Assembly (NCBI GenBank): GCA_963695855.1
Contig: CAVOHZ010000010.1
Coordinates: forward strand, 256,001-320,000
Reading direction: 5' to 3'
DNA: 64,000 bases
Source: an uncultured Nitrososphaerales archaeon
GTDB taxonomy: Archaea > Thermoproteota > Nitrososphaeria > Nitrososphaerales > Nitrososphaeraceae
This document shows, in pieces, positions 10,105-35,472 of the stretch. Under the pieces are notes generated by a model. That model searched no databases. It worked only from the letters and a program-made list of their open reading frames with translations, and was not told the DNA's origin. Within the stretch, counting starts at the first letter, position 1. Every line of letters begins with the position of its first letter. Made by a program: the position numbers and the translations under genes.

Positions 10105-10632
10105 ATGATAAAAAAAATTTATTTTATTTTTAATAATAACATACTCCTGATACTGTTATTATCAATTTTATTTTTGTTATCTATTCAATTTTCTTATGCC
10201 GATAATAATAGAAGTTTATTGCATAACAATGCAGAATTATTAGGATGGATTTCTATTAGTTGTGGATTAATTGCTAATCTTCCATTCATTTTATATGTAC
10301 GTGTAAAGAAACTCTCAGTCAAAAGATTAGGTGGAGGAGATAGTTTAACTCGAAATCTTGCTCTAGAACATACACCAATAATTAATTTTCATACTGCTTT
10401 GAATCTAATAGGATTTTTTACAGGAATATTTCATGGAATATTGTTAGTACGTGGAATAGATTTTATTTCTATATCTTTAGCAATTGTCATAACAATACTT
10501 ACTGTTAGTGGTATTTTACTAAGATTTGCAAAATTAAGAATTATCAATCAATTTAATAGAATAATACATACGCATATTATTTTATCAGCTTTGCTTGTAA
10601 TTTTGATAATTCTACATGTATCACTTTCATAG
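10105..10632 (+). CDS. Membrane protein with paired TM histidines (cytochrome b/ferric reductase-like)
   Basis: FH-x12-FH and IH-x14-LH spacing in TM helices. Confidence 0.65.
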   Translation: MIKKIYFIFNNNILLILLLSILFLLSIQFSYADNNRSLLHNNAELLGWISISCGLIANLPFILYVRVKKLSVKRLGGGDSLTRNLALEHTPIINFHTALNLIGFFTGIFHGILLVRGIDFISISLAIVITILTVSGILLRFAKLRIINQFNRIIHTHIILSALLVILIILHVSLS

Positions 10633-11171
10633 TATGAAGGGTAATGATTTAAAAGAAGAGTATCTTTTACTTTTTATATTTATAACTGCTTTTGTTATCA
10701 TGTTATTGAACATAATAATTAGACAGACAATGATAAAATAATAATATATTTGTTTGATATTGTTAATAAATCTGATAATAAATAGGCTATGTCAATTCCT
10801 CGATTGATATTTAATTAAGAATGATAAGATTGGTTGTTTGTATGACACAAGGAATAGAAGATTCAAAACAAGACTATCAGTAAGAAAGAATTTCTATATG
10901 TGAGATAGATTATTTGATATGTTTCTAATTGACGCTGTATATATCTCTTCCTTTCATTAACTGTCTTTATAGAATTAATAATAAGATTTTCTCTTTTAAT
11001 ATAGTAAAAAGAATTTCTACAATTTATCAATTAGCAAATTTCTTGATAGTCGATCTTGAAAAAGATATTAGCGTTCTACTAGATGCGATAATGGAAGGAC
11101 GGGCTCTGTAGGTGAAATGTTCGACAGAGCTAACATTCAAGAAGAAAGCCACTACCAATACTCTTGCAAAT

Positions 11172-12200
11172 ATGTATGCGGCATTAGATTTAGGACAGAA
11201 AAACATTCAGGCAGTATTGAAAAATAAAGATGGTAAGATTATAAAGGAAAATAAAATACAGCGTAATACCAAAACAATACTAGAATTTCTTGATAATAGT
11301 AACAAGAATCATAATAATATTGATATTGTAATGGAGTCTGGTTACAACTATCAATATCTATATGATCTTTTACAAGATGAAGGTTATAATGTAAAAGTAG
11401 CACATCCACTAATGGTCAAGGCAATAGCATATGCTAAAGTCAAGACAGATAAAGTAGATGCTAGAATATTAGCAGATCTACTAAGAATGGATATGATACC
11501 AGAATGTTATATACCTAATAAAGATATAAGAAATTTACGAGATCTAGTTAGACGCAGATACTATTTTGTCAGTATTCGAACAATGTTCAAAAACAAAGCA
11601 CATGTTGAGATGAGTAAAAGATGGTTAGATGCTAATGTGACTAATAATATAACAACAACAATGATTAAAAATGATCCATTTTCTAAAAAAGGAAAATGTC
11701 ATTTACGTTCACTGGGAATACATGCATTAGATGATTGCCTTGATACCATAGATTTTCTAGATAGAAAAATAAAAGAGTTGGATACAGAAATAAAGAAATT
11801 GGCAATAGAAGATAAATACTCTAAACATCTTATGACAATTCCAGGTATATCTTACTATGCAGCTCTTCTAATATCAAGCGAGATAGCAGATATTAACAGG
11901 TTTCCAGACTATGAACATCTGTGTTCTTATGCTAGATTAGTACCTGGTACATATCAATCTGGAAATACATCATTCTCAAAAACAGACAAAAAACAAGGGA
12001 GCAAAATGCTAAACTGGATTATGGTACAGTGTACTCATACACATGTACGTTATTGCCAATCATCGATAACAGTACATTACAACAAGATAAAGAATAGAAA
12101 GAGAAATAACAAAATTGCTATAATTGCAGCAGCAAGAAAATTAATGCGTGTGATATATGTTATGCTAAAGGAAGATCGTCCCTTTAGACTGGATGAATAA
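11172..12200 (+). CDS. IS110-family DEDD recombinase A
   Basis: ALDLG, MES, KTDKVD, TIPGI and QSG motifs; ATG at 11172 preferred over GTG at 11112. Confidence 0.93.
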   Translation: MYAALDLGQKNIQAVLKNKDGKIIKENKIQRNTKTILEFLDNSNKNHNNIDIVMESGYNYQYLYDLLQDEGYNVKVAHPLMVKAIAYAKVKTDKVDARILADLLRMDMIPECYIPNKDIRNLRDLVRRRYYFVSIRTMFKNKAHVEMSKRWLDANVTNNITTTMIKNDPFSKKGKCHLRSLGIHALDDCLDTIDFLDRKIKELDTEIKKLAIEDKYSKHLMTIPGISYYAALLISSEIADINRFPDYEHLCSYARLVPGTYQSGNTSFSKTDKKQGSKMLNWIMVQCTHTHVRYCQSSITVHYNKIKNRKRNNKIAIIAAARKLMRVIYVMLKEDRPFRLDE

Positions 12201-12211
12201 TAATATAGTAT

Positions 12212-12346
12212 AGGACCTCTTGGTTTCTTGCATCGTCATATTGTTATTATTATATGATAAGTATGATGGATGCCATCTGTAGGTTAGGTCTGGCTACTAC
12301 TAGCGCAAAGCCACGGTGCACTATTGGTGCGTATGGGAGAATGCTA
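12212..12346 (+). ncRNA. Predicted bridge/seek RNA of IS110-A
   Basis: Two stems with internal loops; TGGTTTCT (12221-28) and TCTGTAG (12276-82) match the target, ATGGGAG (12333-39) matches the donor end. Confidence 0.8.
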
Positions 12347-12432
12347 TTATTCATCAGTTAATCATATTAGGAACGAGTATTATATGAACATGGGAGAAAC
12401 CATCATAGCTAGCAACATTCTACCATTAATTA

Positions 12433-13344
12433 TTGAACAAACAACAATCAAAATATGTTAGATTAGCAGATCAACTATTACGTATTCTCAAACATTGCAG
12501 AATTCCATTATATTTGCATAGAAAGAGCAACCACATTTACACAGTATGGCAACACATAGTACTTGTTACAATAAGAAGACAGTATGAAGGTAAGAGTTAT
12601 CGAATGTTTACAGACTGGCTTGTTGAAGCATACTATTTGAGATTGTTTTTACAACTATCCAAAATACCACATTATACAACATTACAGAAATTCACAGATA
12701 GAATCAATGTAGTGATGCTTGGAAAGATAATCTCATCTTTTATCTTATTCACAAGAACAAGACGCATATTTACTGGCATAGATTTGACTGGATTCAAAAT
12801 AACACATGCATCAGAGTACTATACTAGCAGAGCAAAACTACGAAGGAAGAAATATGCTAAATTGTCAATTGGCGCAGATGTATTACAACAAATCGTCTGT
12901 TCTATAAAGATAAGGCGAGCTCCAACAAGACATGATAACATAGATTTTAGACCAGTGACAACAAGAATATCAAAAATAAAACCATTATCGGTAGTTGTTG
13001 CAGATAAAGCATATGATAGTGAGGATAATCATGTACTAGTTAGAGAGAAACTAAACGGATTCAGTGTTATACCATCAAGATATGAAAAAGATGTACCAAT
13101 ATGGAAAACTCGTGGCAAATACAGAAAAGAAATGAAACGTGGCTATTCAAAGATTCTGTACAATCAACGTAACAAAGATGAAACTATTGTATTAGTCATA
13201 AAAAGATTGTTTGGAGAACATATATCATCCAGATTAATACGAATGCAGAACAGAGAATTGACTTTCAGATGTATTACATACAATCTTCATAGGATGCTAA
13301 ATTTAATTATTATTAAATGGATTCTACAGAGCCGAAGGACGTAG
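12433..13344 (+). CDS. IS5-family DDE transposase
   Basis: IPHYTTL, GIDLTGF, VADKAYDS and Y.QR...ET....IKRLFG motifs. Confidence 0.9.
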   Translation: MNKQQSKYVRLADQLLRILKHCRIPLYLHRKSNHIYTVWQHIVLVTIRRQYEGKSYRMFTDWLVEAYYLRLFLQLSKIPHYTTLQKFTDRINVVMLGKIISSFILFTRTRRIFTGIDLTGFKITHASEYYTSRAKLRRKKYAKLSIGADVLQQIVCSIKIRRAPTRHDNIDFRPVTTRISKIKPLSVVVADKAYDSEDNHVLVREKLNGFSVIPSRYEKDVPIWKTRGKYRKEMKRGYSKILYNQRNKDETIVLVIKRLFGEHISSRLIRMQNRELTFRCITYNLHRMLNLIIIKWILQSRRT

Positions 13345-14348
13345 AACCTTAAATACGATGAAGTATGTTTTCATGGCAACAAGTGCTAATTTCGGAAATA
13401 TGTTTAGTATGGCTGGTGTATCGTTATTTCTGACATTCCTTCCCCTTTTGCCAAAACAGATACTTCTTACCAACTTGATGACAGACTTTCCAGAAATGAC
13501 AATATCAACAGATAATGTAGATAAAGAAATATTAGAAGTTCCCAGGCATTGGGATCTTAAATTTATTCGTAAATTCATGCTTGTATTTGGTTTTTTAAGT
13601 ACTATTTTTGATTTTCTGACCTTTATTGTACTACTAAATATTTTACACGCAAACATAGAACAATTTAGAACGACATGGTTTATGGAATCAGTTATTTCGG
13701 CTTCACTCGTAGTTTTAATTATCAGAAGTAAAAAACCATTAATGAAAAGTACTCCTGGAAAATTTTTGTTAATTACAACTTTAATAGTTAATATTTTTGT
13801 ACTTGCTATTCCTCTTACTCCTATTGGCCCAATATTTGGATTTGTTGTTATCCCGTTAACATTCTATCTTAGTATAGGAATAATTGTGCTAACGTATGTA
13901 GTTATGGCTGAAGTAATAAAGTGGATCTTTTATAGATTGGTAAAAATGTAATATTAAATCTCTTTTTTGAAACGTCTATAGCGTTTAAATCTGCATGTAG
14001 ATTAATGGTATTTGTTATAGCGGGCAACAATATTAAAAAAGTCATTAATAGCATCAAAACCAAGCAATAGTTCTACTCTCTTAAGTAGTGAATAATTATA
14101 TTTCTTCTAACCTCCTGCATAATATTCCCACAATAGGTTATCCACTTGAGCTATGGTAGTAATTAGTGCAAGACAGGAATAGATAAAAAAAGTATTACAA
14201 TCAAAACTTACGATAAACATATTAATTTATAAAAATTGTCATCAGTTGTTATTTTTCCATAATGATAACCAGTTAAATAATTAATAAGCTTATTAAAAAT
14301 CGAAACTTTATAGATATGCTTAAATCCTAGATCCTGTGAGCAACTGGT

Positions 14349-31200: not shown

Positions 31201-31401
31201 GATAAAAAAATGACTATCTCTTGGTTAATTAAATGATATTAGACGCCTTCAAAATATTGGGCATTTCATTTAATGTAAACAGATACATATTGTATAAAAT
31301 TAGAAGTGCCATAGTAGCCTAACTGCAGCGATTTGAATTTGTCATATACGGTGCCTTGTTGAATACATGTAAAAGTCTTTTCCTGTTATCTATTCTCTTA
31401 T

Positions 31402-31543
31402 CCAACTGGCTAACCCCTTGTTGTGCGTGACCTGTCTTACTAGGATAAGGTCTTGCTTGTTGAATGGGGATATGTGTAAGCTGCTGTATATGTGAGCCAT
31501 AAAGAGCTCTGATAGATGTTTGCAGCTTTGTCTGGCTAGTTGG
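31402..31543 (+). ncRNA. Predicted bridge RNA of IS110-B copy 1
   Basis: Closing stem CCAACTGGCTA/TGGCTAGTTGG and two internal-loop hairpins with target and donor guides. Confidence 0.8.
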
Positions 31544-31590
31544 TTGGTTGGTTGGTATACTGATACTAGTATCATAATAAAAAAAAGGAG

Positions 31591-32706
31591 GTGAAAAAGA
31601 GAATAGAAGAAAAAATAATAGAATCAAGAAAAGATGATAGTTACTATATTGCGGTAGACATTGGAAAGAAAAACTGTGTTGTATGTATAACAGATAAGGA
31701 TGGTTCCATAATAGAAGAAACAAAATATGATAATACTCTACAAGAAGCAGAAAGATTTGCTTCTCATTTGGATAAAAAGTATAGCAACAGAAAATGTCAT
31801 GCTGTTTGTGAATCAACAGCGAATATGTGGTTAAAGACATACGAAGCATTTGAGAAATATGGTATAGATGTTAAACTGGCTAATCCTCTGAAGACCAAGG
31901 CAATAGCAGAAGCAAGGATAAAAACAGATAAACTAGATGCTAGAATATTAGCACATTTACTACGATCTAATTTGATTGCAGAATCATATATTGCTCCAGA
32001 TAATGTAAGAGAGGATAGATCTCTACTACGACTGAGAATAAACCTCGTACATGACAGAACCAGAGTTATGAATAGAGTACATTCCCTGTTGGATAAATAT
32101 GATCTGAAATGCAGGTATGAGCATATATTTGGTGTAAATGGTATCAGATGGCTAAAGAGTATAGAACTAAAACTGAAAGGTAATAATGACCAGGTTCAAC
32201 TTGCCAACTACATAAAAAATATTGAATTTCTAAATTCTGAAATCAGACAAATTGAAAAACAGAAATCTGCTGAGGCATCGCACAATGAAAATGTAAAGAT
32301 ATTGATGAGCATGACAGGAATCGACTATTTTTCTGCAATGCTCATTAGTTCTGAGATAGGAGATATATCCAGATTCAGAACAGCAGAAAAACTTGTCTCA
32401 TGGTGTGGATTGTGTCCAACTATATATCAATCAGGTAACTCGATGTATATGGGTAGAATGAAAAAAGATGGAAACAAAAAGATAAACTGGATCATGATTC
32501 AGGCAGCGAATACAGCATCAAGGACAGACGAAAGAATGAAAAAATATTATATAAAGATAGCAAAAAGACATGGACATCATGTAGCGATAACTCATGTAGC
32601 AAACAAGATGATAAGGATAATCTGGTCAATGCTAACATACAAACAACTGTACAATGAAAGAAAAAAGGAACTATATGAGACAAAACTTAAGAAGATCCAG
32701 AATTAA
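31591..32706 (+). CDS. IS110-family DEDD recombinase B
   Basis: AVDIG, CEST, KTDKLD, MTGID and QSG motifs; GGAGG just upstream. Confidence 0.95.
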   Translation: MKKRIEEKIIESRKDDSYYIAVDIGKKNCVVCITDKDGSIIEETKYDNTLQEAERFASHLDKKYSNRKCHAVCESTANMWLKTYEAFEKYGIDVKLANPLKTKAIAEARIKTDKLDARILAHLLRSNLIAESYIAPDNVREDRSLLRLRINLVHDRTRVMNRVHSLLDKYDLKCRYEHIFGVNGIRWLKSIELKLKGNNDQVQLANYIKNIEFLNSEIRQIEKQKSAEASHNENVKILMSMTGIDYFSAMLISSEIGDISRFRTAEKLVSWCGLCPTIYQSGNSMYMGRMKKDGNKKINWIMIQAANTASRTDERMKKYYIKIAKRHGHHVAITHVANKMIRIIWSMLTYKQLYNERKKELYETKLKKIQN

Positions 32707-32874
32707 TGTAAAGTGATACATCATTGCTATGTATCATACTGACTGACAGATAAAGTATCAAACATTACACGGCAGTAGTAGTATTTGGATAAGGAAAATG
32801 ATCAGAAGAGACTTTTACATAGATGCCCAACTCATTTTGCCTAACACATTTAGCTAACCAAATCTAGTCATATT

Positions 32875-33783: not shown

Positions 33784-33947
33784 TTATCAATCATATAATA
33801 ATGAGAAAGATTGTTTAAACGAGTTATGCATCTATGTAAAAGTCTCTTCTGATCATTTTCCTTATCCAAATACTACTACTGCCGTGTAATGTTTGATACT
33901 TTATCTGTCAGTCAGTATGATACATAGCAATGATGTATCACTTTACA

Positions 33948-35063
33948 TTAATTCTGGATCTTCTTAAGTTTTGTCTCATATAGTTCCTTTTTTCTTTCAT
34001 TGTACAGTTGTTTGTATGTTAGCATTGACCAGATTATCCTTATCATCTTGTTTGCTACATGAGTTATCGCTACATGATGTCCATGTCTTTTTGCTATCTT
34101 TATATAATATTTTTTCATTCTTTCGTCTGTCCTTGATGCTGTATTCGCTGCCTGAATCATGATCCAGTTTATCTTTTTGTTTCCATCTTTTTTCATTCTA
34201 CCCATATACATCGAGTTACCTGATTGATATATAGTTGGACACAATCCACACCATGAGACAAGTTTTTCTGCTGTTCTGAATCTGGATATATCTCCTATCT
34301 CAGAACTAATGAGCATTGCAGAAAAATAGTCGATTCCTGTCATGCTCATCAATATCTTTACATTTTCATTGTGCGATGCCTCAGCAGATTTCTGTTTTTC
34401 AATTTGTCTGATTTCAGAATTTAGAAATTCAATATTTTTTATGTAGTTGGCAAGTTGAACCTGGTCATTATTACCTTTCAGTTTTAGTTCTATACTCTTT
34501 AGCCATCTGATACCATTTACACCAAATATATGCTCATACCTGCATTTCAGATCATATTTATCCAACAGGGAATGTACTCTATTCATAACTCTGGTTCTGT
34601 CATGTACGAGGTTTATTCTCAGTCGTAGTAGAGATCTATCCTCTCTTACATTATCTGGAGCAATATATGATTCTGCAATCAAATTAGATCGTAGTAAATG
34701 TGCTAATATTCTAGCATCTAGTTTATCTGTTTTTATCCTTGCTTCTGCTATTGCCTTGGTCTTCAGAGGATTAGCCAGTTTAACATCTATACCATATTTC
34801 TCAAATGCTTCGTATGTCTTTAACCACATATTCGCTGTTGATTCACAAACAGCATGACATTTTCTGTTGCTATACTTTTTATCCAAATGAGAAGCAAATC
34901 TTTCTGCTTCTTGTAGAGTATTATCATATTTTGTTTCTTCTATTATGGAACCATCCTTATCTGTTATACATACAACACAGTTTTTCTTTCCAATGTCTAC
35001 CGCAATATAGTAACTATCATCTTTTCTTGATTCTATTATTTTTTCTTCTATTCTCTTTTTCAC
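33948..35063 (-). CDS. IS110-family recombinase B, copy 2
   Basis: 371 aa, identical to 31591-32706. Confidence 0.95.
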   Translation of the reverse strand: MKKRIEEKIIESRKDDSYYIAVDIGKKNCVVCITDKDGSIIEETKYDNTLQEAERFASHLDKKYSNRKCHAVCESTANMWLKTYEAFEKYGIDVKLANPLKTKAIAEARIKTDKLDARILAHLLRSNLIAESYIAPDNVREDRSLLRLRINLVHDRTRVMNRVHSLLDKYDLKCRYEHIFGVNGIRWLKSIELKLKGNNDQVQLANYIKNIEFLNSEIRQIEKQKSAEASHNENVKILMSMTGIDYFSAMLISSEIGDISRFRTAEKLVSWCGLCPTIYQSGNSMYMGRMKKDGNKKINWIMIQAANTASRTDERMKKYYIKIAKRHGHHVAITHVANKMIRIIWSMLTYKQLYNERKKELYETKLKKIQN

Positions 35064-35110
35064 CTCCTTTTTTTTATTATGATACTAGTATCAGTATACC
35101 AACCAACCAA

Positions 35111-35252
35111 CCAACTAGCCAGACAAAGCTGCAAACATCTATCAGAGCTCTTTATGGCTCACATATACAGCAGCTTACACATATCCCCATTCAACAAGCA
35201 AGACCTTATCCTAGTAAGACAGGTCACGCACAACAAGGGGTTAGCCAGTTGG
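35111..35252 (-). ncRNA. Predicted bridge RNA of IS110-B copy 2
   Basis: Reverse complement of 31402-31543. Confidence 0.8.
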
Positions 35253-35294
35253 ATAAGAGAATAGATAACAGGAAAAGACTTTTACATGTATTCA

Positions 35295-35472
35295 ACAAAC
35301 TAGCATTTTTGTCTTGATCATTATATTCAGCCAAATCCAACAAAGATTTAATAAAGAATAGTTTATACGTGCTCGATAATTTAGGAGCGCTAAAGAGCGA
35401 ATTAACTTTTACCAGATAATGTTGATAACCACTTTCTTTTTCGTTTTCAAATCGGTTATCTATGTCAAGCAT
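35295..35472 (-). pseudogene. N-terminal fragment of a probable HNH-endonuclease-family protein, truncated at IS110-B
   Basis: SSTYKLFFIKSLLDL motif; ORF runs into the IS. Confidence 0.5.

Follow-up and report, generated by a model that had tools for sequence, protein, structure and literature searches.

A probable RNA-guided IS110-family element in the end of an archaeal IS5-family element

Introduction

How does one insertion sequence (IS) come to lie at a fixed position inside the terminal inverted repeat of another? The question is raised by positions 11094-13341 of a 64-kb stretch (the window, meaning the whole piece of DNA analysed; 128 kb counting both strands) of the 3.55-Mb, 11-contig genome of an uncultured Nitrososphaerales archaeon. 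Here a 1285-bp IS110-family element, which we call IS110-A, interrupts an IS5-family element within its left inverted repeat. A non-coding tail of 196 nt lies 3' of its recombinase gene, and from it the original prediction, made from the DNA sequence, had proposed an archaeal RNA-guided recombinase aimed at the end of another IS. That proposal is supported by the copies present in the genome, by a covariance model of the RNA (R1), by covariation of guides with insertion sites among relatives, and by the archaeal small- and large-subunit rRNA models, which win their clans in this genome. Judged from these comparisons, IS110-A is very probably an RNA-guided recombinase element programmed against the IS5-family end.

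For IS1111-type members of the family, the sections of Siddiquee et al. 2024 (PMC11187229) drawn on here describe a non-coding region downstream of the gene and an essential, programmable seekRNA of 70-100 nt, with a long form of 145-170 nt, that carries two target matches, the one complementary to the top strand coming first; the family is given there as abundant in bacteria and archaea. The corresponding parts of Durrant et al. 2024 (PMC11208160) present the two-loop bridge RNA model, state that IS1111 members encode their RNA in the right end, and give 7-17 bp for their sub-terminal inverted repeats. Archaeal IS110 recombinases have been counted (662, in the portion of 10.1101/2024.06.21.599552 used), and RNAs beside IS110 recombinases have been mined at scale, with bacterial and archaeal intergenic sequences clustered (10.64898/2026.10.21.760802, likewise used in part). 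IS1111-type guide RNAs, archaeal IS110 recombinases and the targeting of transposon or IS repeats are all in print already. Literature on IS110 in ammonia-oxidising archaea or Nitrososphaer* yielded only a 2012 fosmid study naming an IS110-like transposase; no description of the RNA family or target reported below was found there, and supplementary tables may list it.

Results

Architecture of the nested elements

The host element is bounded by an 8-bp target-site duplication, GAAGGACG, read directly at 11094-11101 and again at 13334-13341. The outer 10 bp of its left inverted repeat, GGCTCTGTAG (11102-11111, + strand), end in AG, the crossover core, and the rest of the element (12397-13333, +) begins AAACCAT and carries the transposase open reading frame listed at 12433-13344. 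On the other strand, the sequence of the right inverted repeat (13317-13333) is GGCTCTGTAGAATCCAT. Without the insert the host is 947 bp long, with inverted repeats of 17 bp, of which the left one is split after base 10 by the 1285-bp insert. The host transposase matches Pfam family PF01609 and NCBIfam model NF033579 ('IS5 family transposase', 146.7 bits against a cut-off of 140). Excision of 11112-12396 had been predicted to restore the left repeat with the 8-bp duplication intact, and the sequence and the intact host copies agree on this: the genome contains six full copies of the host family, the intact ones read GGCTCTGTAGAAACCAT at the left repeat, and since two uninterrupted copies elsewhere read GGCTCTGTAGAAACCATCATAGC, the restored site is real and not inferred. 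The unoccupied right repeat differs by one base, as described in the same prediction. As a whole the host family is a mosaic, with the first ~245 bp near-identical in all six copies and the rest diverging to ~80%; the copy in the window and the other five (L001, L003, L179-L181) share indels in patterns that cross the divide between occupied and empty.

IS110-A itself (11112-12396, +) ends in the second AG core. Its recombinase gene (11112-12200, +; 362 amino acids) has as its start a GTG that is also base 1 of the element, so that, if this is the true start, a 5' leader is lacking. From base 1 onwards the frame is open, five relatives conserve its first 14 residues in frame, and the left end starts with GTG in every relative. 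In the recombinase the domains PF01548 (DEDD_Tnp_IS110, RuvC-like; E 4.9e-24) and PF02371 (Transposase_20; E 2.8e-18) are recognised, and it scores 218 bits against NCBIfam model NF033542, 'IS110 family RNA-guided transposase' (cut-off 140). Its similarity to the IS621 and ISCro4 transposases in the Protein Data Bank (PDB) is distant (E 4e-13, in two stretches). In the alignment with IS621, KTDKVDA is placed against KTDTVDA, YQSG against YESG and an N-terminal D is shared, with ESG and EATG offset by one column; the aligned acidic residues and the SG-motif serine are presumably catalytic.

An AG is found at both junctions and a single AG in the empty sites, so the element has a short core only, without terminal inverted repeats. 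Sub-terminal inverted repeats are present, with ATGTTC (11117-11122, +) starting 5 nt from the left end and its partner GAACAT (12386-12391) equally far from the right end; at 6 bp they are one base below the IS1111 range. The right end (12386-12396, +) consists of GAACAT, GGG and the AG core, and the sequence CGACATGGGAG is conserved there in homologs. A further motif in the left end, AAAGCCAC (11145-11152, +), recurs in the left ends of homologs and in the 5' side of the donor loop described below. IS110-A is best described as an IS1111-like member of the IS110 family, with a DEDD/serine recombinase, in an archaeon of the class Nitrososphaeria.

Three insertions at one target

IS110-A occurs three times in the genome, with 100% identity over 1285 bp and the same junctions, and no further full copy is present in the 3.55 Mb. 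All three copies lie at GGCTCTGTAG|AAACCATCATAGC, each in the left inverted repeat of a separate, diverged IS5-family copy, and the split point, TCTGT-AG-AAACCA, is identical in the three hosts. Outside these ten bases of host the flanking sequences are different, and every host is bordered by a duplication of its own. Copies at unrelated sites, which according to the original prediction would speak against it, were sought across the genome; with every copy at the identical 13-nt site, it is not refuted. Overall, the other two occupied hosts are ~85% identical to the window host, in the last 700 bp all three differ from one another, and each carries differences of its own 19-42 bp away from the junction. 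The first ~245 bp beside the insert are near-identical in the occupied hosts and likewise in the three empty copies; this similarity thus belongs to the host family and does not point to co-transfer. Composite transposition and gene conversion do not explain this pattern of host divergence, and the three copies are separate insertions.

The exact 13-mer TCTGTAGAAACCA is found at just two more places in the genome, both of them empty left repeats of the same IS family. One-mismatch sites, which include all the right repeats, are occupied in 0 of 18 cases in the whole genome. On another contig, a 3' fragment of IS110-A with 94% identity adjoins AG|AAACC. The genome also contains two inverted copies of TCTGTAGAAACCC 3.3 kb apart (G000:C10:728422-728434, -, and 731720-731732, +), both unoccupied, which may mark the two ends of a different element that has a similar repeat.

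Structure of the proposed guide RNA

The putative bridge- or seekRNA-like gene occupies 12208-12358 (+), with limits set by R1, a covariance model built from six homologous archaeal elements (54-64% protein identity) with the window excluded. R1 scores 41.8 bits at this position (E 1.5e-7), its sole match in the window, and in the genome it has exactly four matches, corresponding to the three copies and the fragment. It matches 8 of 151 genomes of the family and none of the 21 other genomes of the same genus. No Rfam family matches 10500-14000, even at E values up to 10. A recognisable tail RNA is confined to relatives above ~50% protein identity; beside homologs of 35-40% identity (loci L020-L044) the conserved motif was not seen.

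The fold consists of P1, an internal loop and P2, followed by P3, a second internal loop and P4. The 79-nt target module (12213-12291, +) is closed by P1, in which GGACCT (12213-12218) pairs with AGGTCT (12286-12291), and contains P2, formed by GCATC (12230-12234) and GATGC (12269-12273). Between these stems, the 5' side of the loop (12219-12229) holds TGGTTTCT (12221-12228), complementary to the core and right flank, while the 3' side (12274-12285) holds TCTGTAG (12276-12282), identical to the left flank and core, after which comes GT, with which the element begins. The donor module (12303-12344, +) is formed by P3 (12303-12305 with 12342-12344) and P4 (12317-12321 with 12327-12331). Its 5' loop (12306-12316) contains AAAGCCAC at 12307-12314, and its 3' loop (12332-12341) contains ATGGGAG (12333-12339), after which comes AA, with which the right flank begins. 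The stems and the three loop segments of the original prediction are thus all present, with small corrections of coordinates only.

Across 21 distinct sequences, 93.1% of the cells are paired and 9 of the 18 pairs change on both sides; results for a first, smaller set were alike. Covariation scores 0.378, compared with 0.217 in shuffles (reached in 0 of 500) and at most 0.097 with slid partners, and RNAalifold alone recovers the same four helices. MAFFT alignments misplaced the members with a long P2 hairpin, and model-based alignments were used instead. In shuffles of the window (both strands, 128 kb), chance matches are expected 3.19 times for TGGTTTCT, 6.29 times for TCTGTAG and 5.10 times for ATGGGAG, or about 0.005, 0.010 and 0.008 times per 196-nt tail; for all three jointly, with choice of register allowed for, chance is of the order of 1e-6 to 1e-5. 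Within the 64-kb window TGGTTTCT has two occurrences only: one is in the loop and the other, in complementary form, is at the target junction.

An orphan RNA with right end and with guides as in IS110-A (L183:1440-1620, -) is found in the genome of a different genus, with no recombinase frame upstream; left ends were sought for L183, L188 and L192 and none was found. Weak R1 matches at L051:1353-1461 (E 0.08) and L039:1382-1496 (E 0.007) lie upstream of more distant IS110-type genes. No claim made here rests on L039, which comes from an unpublished genome, or on the unpublished genome G283.

Guides and flanks in related elements

Relatives were sought by protein search in 401 genomes of the class and were present in 69; a scan of species-representative genomes added six more close relatives with 56-63% identity. 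The named relatives come from metagenome-assembled genomes (MAGs) of Nitrososphaerales and other Nitrososphaerota. When aligned to the model, the 5' strand of the target loop consists of six or seven variable bases and then an invariant TCTT, and the 3' strand of seven variable bases followed by an invariant AGGTT, CT and AG being the two readings of the AG core. The guide-target covariation across homologs that had been suggested as a check was assessed on both sides of the insertion sites, and it is observed on both.

For the left side, the five bases before AGGTT were compared with the five bases left of the element. They agree at 41 of 50 positions over ten insertion sites, with 5/5 for IS110-A, L045 and L046 and 4/5 for L019 (whose flank is the same as that of L195), L017, L049, L050, L047 and L048; against the flanks of other elements the same guides agree at ~34% (96/280; eight distinct guide sets). 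For the right side, the six bases before CT were reverse-complemented and compared with the six bases right of the element, giving 66 of 99 positions over 17 sites. All six agree in IS110-A, L184 and L190, five in L183, L019/L195, L017 and L049, and four in L016, L045, L050 and L047, with 4/4 in L046. Four lineages depart from the AACC common among the others, and each fits its own flank: AAACCA in IS110-A and AAATCA in L184 (both 6/6), ACAACA against GCAACA in L019/L195, and AACGTT against AACGAT in L017 (both 5/6).

The element at L184, in another genus, occupies the same position of a related IS5-like left end, which reads AAATCAT in place of AAACCAT; its guide is TTGATT where that of IS110-A is TTGGTT, a compensating G-to-A change. 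The C-terminus of its recombinase and its RNA are close to those of IS110-A. On these sequences, L184 is the best single case of guide-flank compensation. As an independent replicate, one MAG holds three copies (L045, L049 and L050), each at a locus of its own, and their sites share an 11-nt consensus that the guides predict. Most copies in genome G184 are decayed. There, L019 and L195 have over 25 nt of left flank and 11 nt of right flank in common, which suggests that their position, too, is 11 nt inside the end of a repeated host element.

A tandem array is present at L049:2533-3033, made up of three ~177-bp units, each running from the final 24 nt of the gene through the RNA to the right end, and each joining GGGAG to ACCTTCAGG. 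The gene sequence before that joint is GGAAC-AG, a perfect match to the left guide of L049 itself, so the array may have arisen by self-targeting.

The donor loop and the element ends

The ATGGGAG of the donor 3' loop is identical to the right end and core (12390-12396) at 7 of 7 positions. In L047, L048 and L103 the loop reads ATAGGAG and the right ends CTAGGAG, ATAGGGG and ATAGGAG, respectively, loop and end sharing the same G-to-A change in each; in L017 a loop ATAGTAG faces a right end ATTGTAG. The donor 5' strand is the near-invariant AAAGCCAC, of which only the last 3-4 bases are complementary to the left end. In the inserted state both 3' strands match two bases past the core (TCTGTAG plus GT and ATGGGAG plus AA), which would also fit an RNA that reads product or excision junctions.

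The motif AAAGCCAC is found on the same strand in the left end, ~34 nt inside, and in the donor loop of all relatives whose left end was read (L016, L019, L045-L050 and L017); in L017 both copies read AAACCACG, with the same G-to-A change. It could be a displaced left-end guide, pairing with the bottom strand away from the crossover, or alternatively an RNA mimic of a protein-binding site. In the G+C-rich elements L045, L046, L049 and L050, an isolated A+T-rich, TATA-like box, ATAAATAT, is located ~23-30 nt before the right end; IS110-A is A+T-rich, and its corresponding region (12361-12388) has no clear TATA-like box spacing. Together with the frame that is open from base 1, ATAAATAT may be an archaeal version of a circle-junction promoter, from which a leaderless recombinase mRNA would be made only once the right and left ends are joined. 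That the lineage adds both a third recognition element and an archaeal circle-junction promoter to what is known from bacterial relatives is a tentative suggestion, and a doubtful one.

Presence in soil data

Contigs from soil-metagenome RNA libraries cover 11102-12312, 12285-12467 (spanning the right junction) and 11990-12213; they show presence only and are not proof of transcription. The first of them is a variant with ~95% identity, and it too is in such a repeat, since a different sequence precedes the ten host bases. One DNA run matches the region without differences. A gapped-pattern scan of metagenomes proved too loose; among the 80 loci listed, all of which were screened with the model, just two are true.

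A second IS110-type element in the window

An unrelated IS110-type element, with ~36% protein identity to IS110-A, is present at 31356-32837 and 33817-35298. Its two 1482-bp copies are 100% identical and inverted, they flank 979 bp encoding a DDE transposase, and they have sub-terminal repeats of ~12 bp (ATGTAAAAGTCT/AGACTTTTACAT). It looks as if this element has struck both ends of another IS.

Discussion

The identity of the sites, the independence of the insertions, the conserved RNA fold and the covariation of guides with flanks are shown by these comparisons. From them the following mechanism can be proposed. The 3' tail would encode an RNA about 130-150 nt long that folds into two stem-loops, each broken by an internal loop. 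The 5' strand of the target loop would pair with the top strand of AG plus AAACCA and the 3' strand with the bottom strand of TCTGT plus AG, so that both strands would jointly specify the 13-nt TCTGTAGAAACCA, present in this genome only in the IS5-family left repeat. The donor 3' strand, as a repeat of the right end and core, would therefore recognise the donor junction. Recognition of the left end by the RNA would extend over 3-4 nt at most and is probably aided by the sub-terminal inverted repeats and the protein. As in the family generally, exchange at the AG core would insert a circle (right end-AG-left end) 10 bp inside the tip of the host repeat, without further duplication. For production of the RNA, its binding by the recombinase and the route through a circle, this proposal leans on the bacterial relatives that have been studied.

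Several observations weigh against it. The single-sequence fold of the tail is unexceptional (z = -0.29, neither strand being informative), and the RNA structure therefore rests on comparison, where the alignments used for the pair counts were fitted to the R1 structure, which favours that structure. The guide-flank tallies were made by hand. On the left side L016 agrees at only 2 of 5 positions; on the right side the counts fall to 3/5 in L103, 2/6 in L048 and L107, 1/6 in L182 and 0/6 in L193. Decayed elements account for most of the misses. The right end of L048 is altered, and L107 and L103 fit better with a one-base shift. The relics L182 and L193 of genome G184 carry the right flank of L019/L195, unmatched by their own guides, a misfit that could be explained by the RNA of one variant acting on the ends of another or by recombination between copies. 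Most relatives share AACC in guide and flank, so that many right-flank matches are not independent and the four differing lineages are the informative cases. The donor guide for the left end is just 3-4 nt long (CAC/CCAC against GTG/GTGG), as weak as originally described. Two perfect target sites are empty. The RNA-library contigs cannot show transcript ends or levels, and DNA can occur in such libraries; among the soil contigs no circle-junction or emptied-site joint was reported.

How far can other explanations account for the same locus? If the nested structure had spread as a composite IS5 unit or by gene conversion, the junctions would be uninformative on target choice. This would agree with the presence of all copies in one IS family and with the ~245 bp of near-identity next to the inserts, and yet that near-identity is shared by the three empty copies, and fully identical inserts sit in hosts with ~85% identity to that of the window, which also differ from each other. 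A conversion tract would moreover have to end almost exactly at the ends of the element, private differences starting 19 bp from the right junction and the host extending for only 10 bp on the left, and relatives in other genomes have guide-matched flanks at unrelated loci; such an origin is extremely unlikely. The protein alone might instead pick the target, in which case the loop matches would be by-products (captured target, constraints on the ends) and the tail a regulatory or terminator structure. The conserved loop parts TCTT, AGGTT and AAAGCCAC stay constant when the target changes, which would suit this explanation, as would the unremarkable single-sequence fold, and the case for RNA guidance of IS110-A is drawn from sequence. 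It is nevertheless very improbable, as the variable loop positions track the flanks at the 10 plus 17 assessed sites, including the compensation in L184, the guide segments lie on opposite sides of an internal loop supported by covariation, and NCBIfam groups the recombinase with RNA-guided transposases.

An element that is RNA-guided in kind might also survive here as inactive relics of one past burst, its RNA no longer made or used. The two perfect sites that are still empty are compatible with this, as are the lack of circle or excision joints in the soil contigs, the many relatives elsewhere that are decayed or reduced to orphan RNA-plus-end fragments, and the absence of R1 matches from the other 21 genomes of the genus. 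The three copies are, however, identical, with an intact 362-residue frame and intact loops, which indicates recent movement, and the ~95% variant in the soil data is in the same type of site with a different outer flank. There is little chance that the copies are such relics, and RNA-guided insertion by IS110-A remains the reading that we adopt.

When IS110-A is compared with the IS1111 seekRNA elements ISEc11, ISKpn4, ISPa11 and ISPst6, as presented in the relevant sections of PMC11187229, it is alike in its DEDD recombinase, downstream non-coding region and sub-terminal repeats, and in the opposite-strand segments that overlap at the crossover. The top-strand-complementary TGGTTTCT (12221-12228) precedes TCTGTAG (12276-12282), in keeping with the rule given there, the lengths are similar (a target module of 79 nt and ~150 nt for the whole RNA, against ~80 and ~150 nt for seekRNA), and in both groups changes of guide bases naturally redirect relatives (PMC11187229). 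The second loop of IS110-A clearly repeats the right end and core, for which the sections of PMC11187229 used here have no such description. IS110-A also differs in its archaeal host, its 6-bp sub-terminal repeat and a protein distant from the studied members, and it is known here from sequence alone. With the IS621 and ISCro4 bridge RNAs (PDB entries 8wt6 and 9t56; PMC11208160, in the parts drawn on) it shares target and donor internal loops, in each of which the two strands read opposite DNA strands around a 2-nt core. Unlike in IS621 and ISCro4, the RNA is at the 3' and not the 5' end, the guides come in the opposite order, AG serves as the core, there is hardly any left-end donor guide and the protein similarity is low (E 4e-13). 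The matching of the 3' strands 2 nt beyond the core resembles the 'handshake' pairing that is said to be described in the IS621 structure paper. Bacterial IS1111-type elements reportedly strike the terminal inverted repeats of other elements, IS4321/IS5075 in Tn21-family repeats and IS1383 in IS1384 repeats being the subjects of such studies, and the fixed position and orientation are alike. Unlike in these, the host of IS110-A is an archaeal IS5-family element, and its exact site exists only in the left repeat.

The finding leaves the picture of how the family works unchanged, the mechanism being known from bacteria; it would provide a clear natural case of RNA-programmed insertion in an archaeon, in which one genome displays the guide together with the occupied sites and the empty site, and the relatives show natural re-programming. 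The compact, G+C-poor pair of recombinase and RNA, from a mesophilic archaeon and with a readable 13-nt target, is a possible genome-engineering tool. For the host, an end split 10 bp from its tip is probably disabled, and the locus suggests that archaeal insertion sequences parasitise each other's ends.

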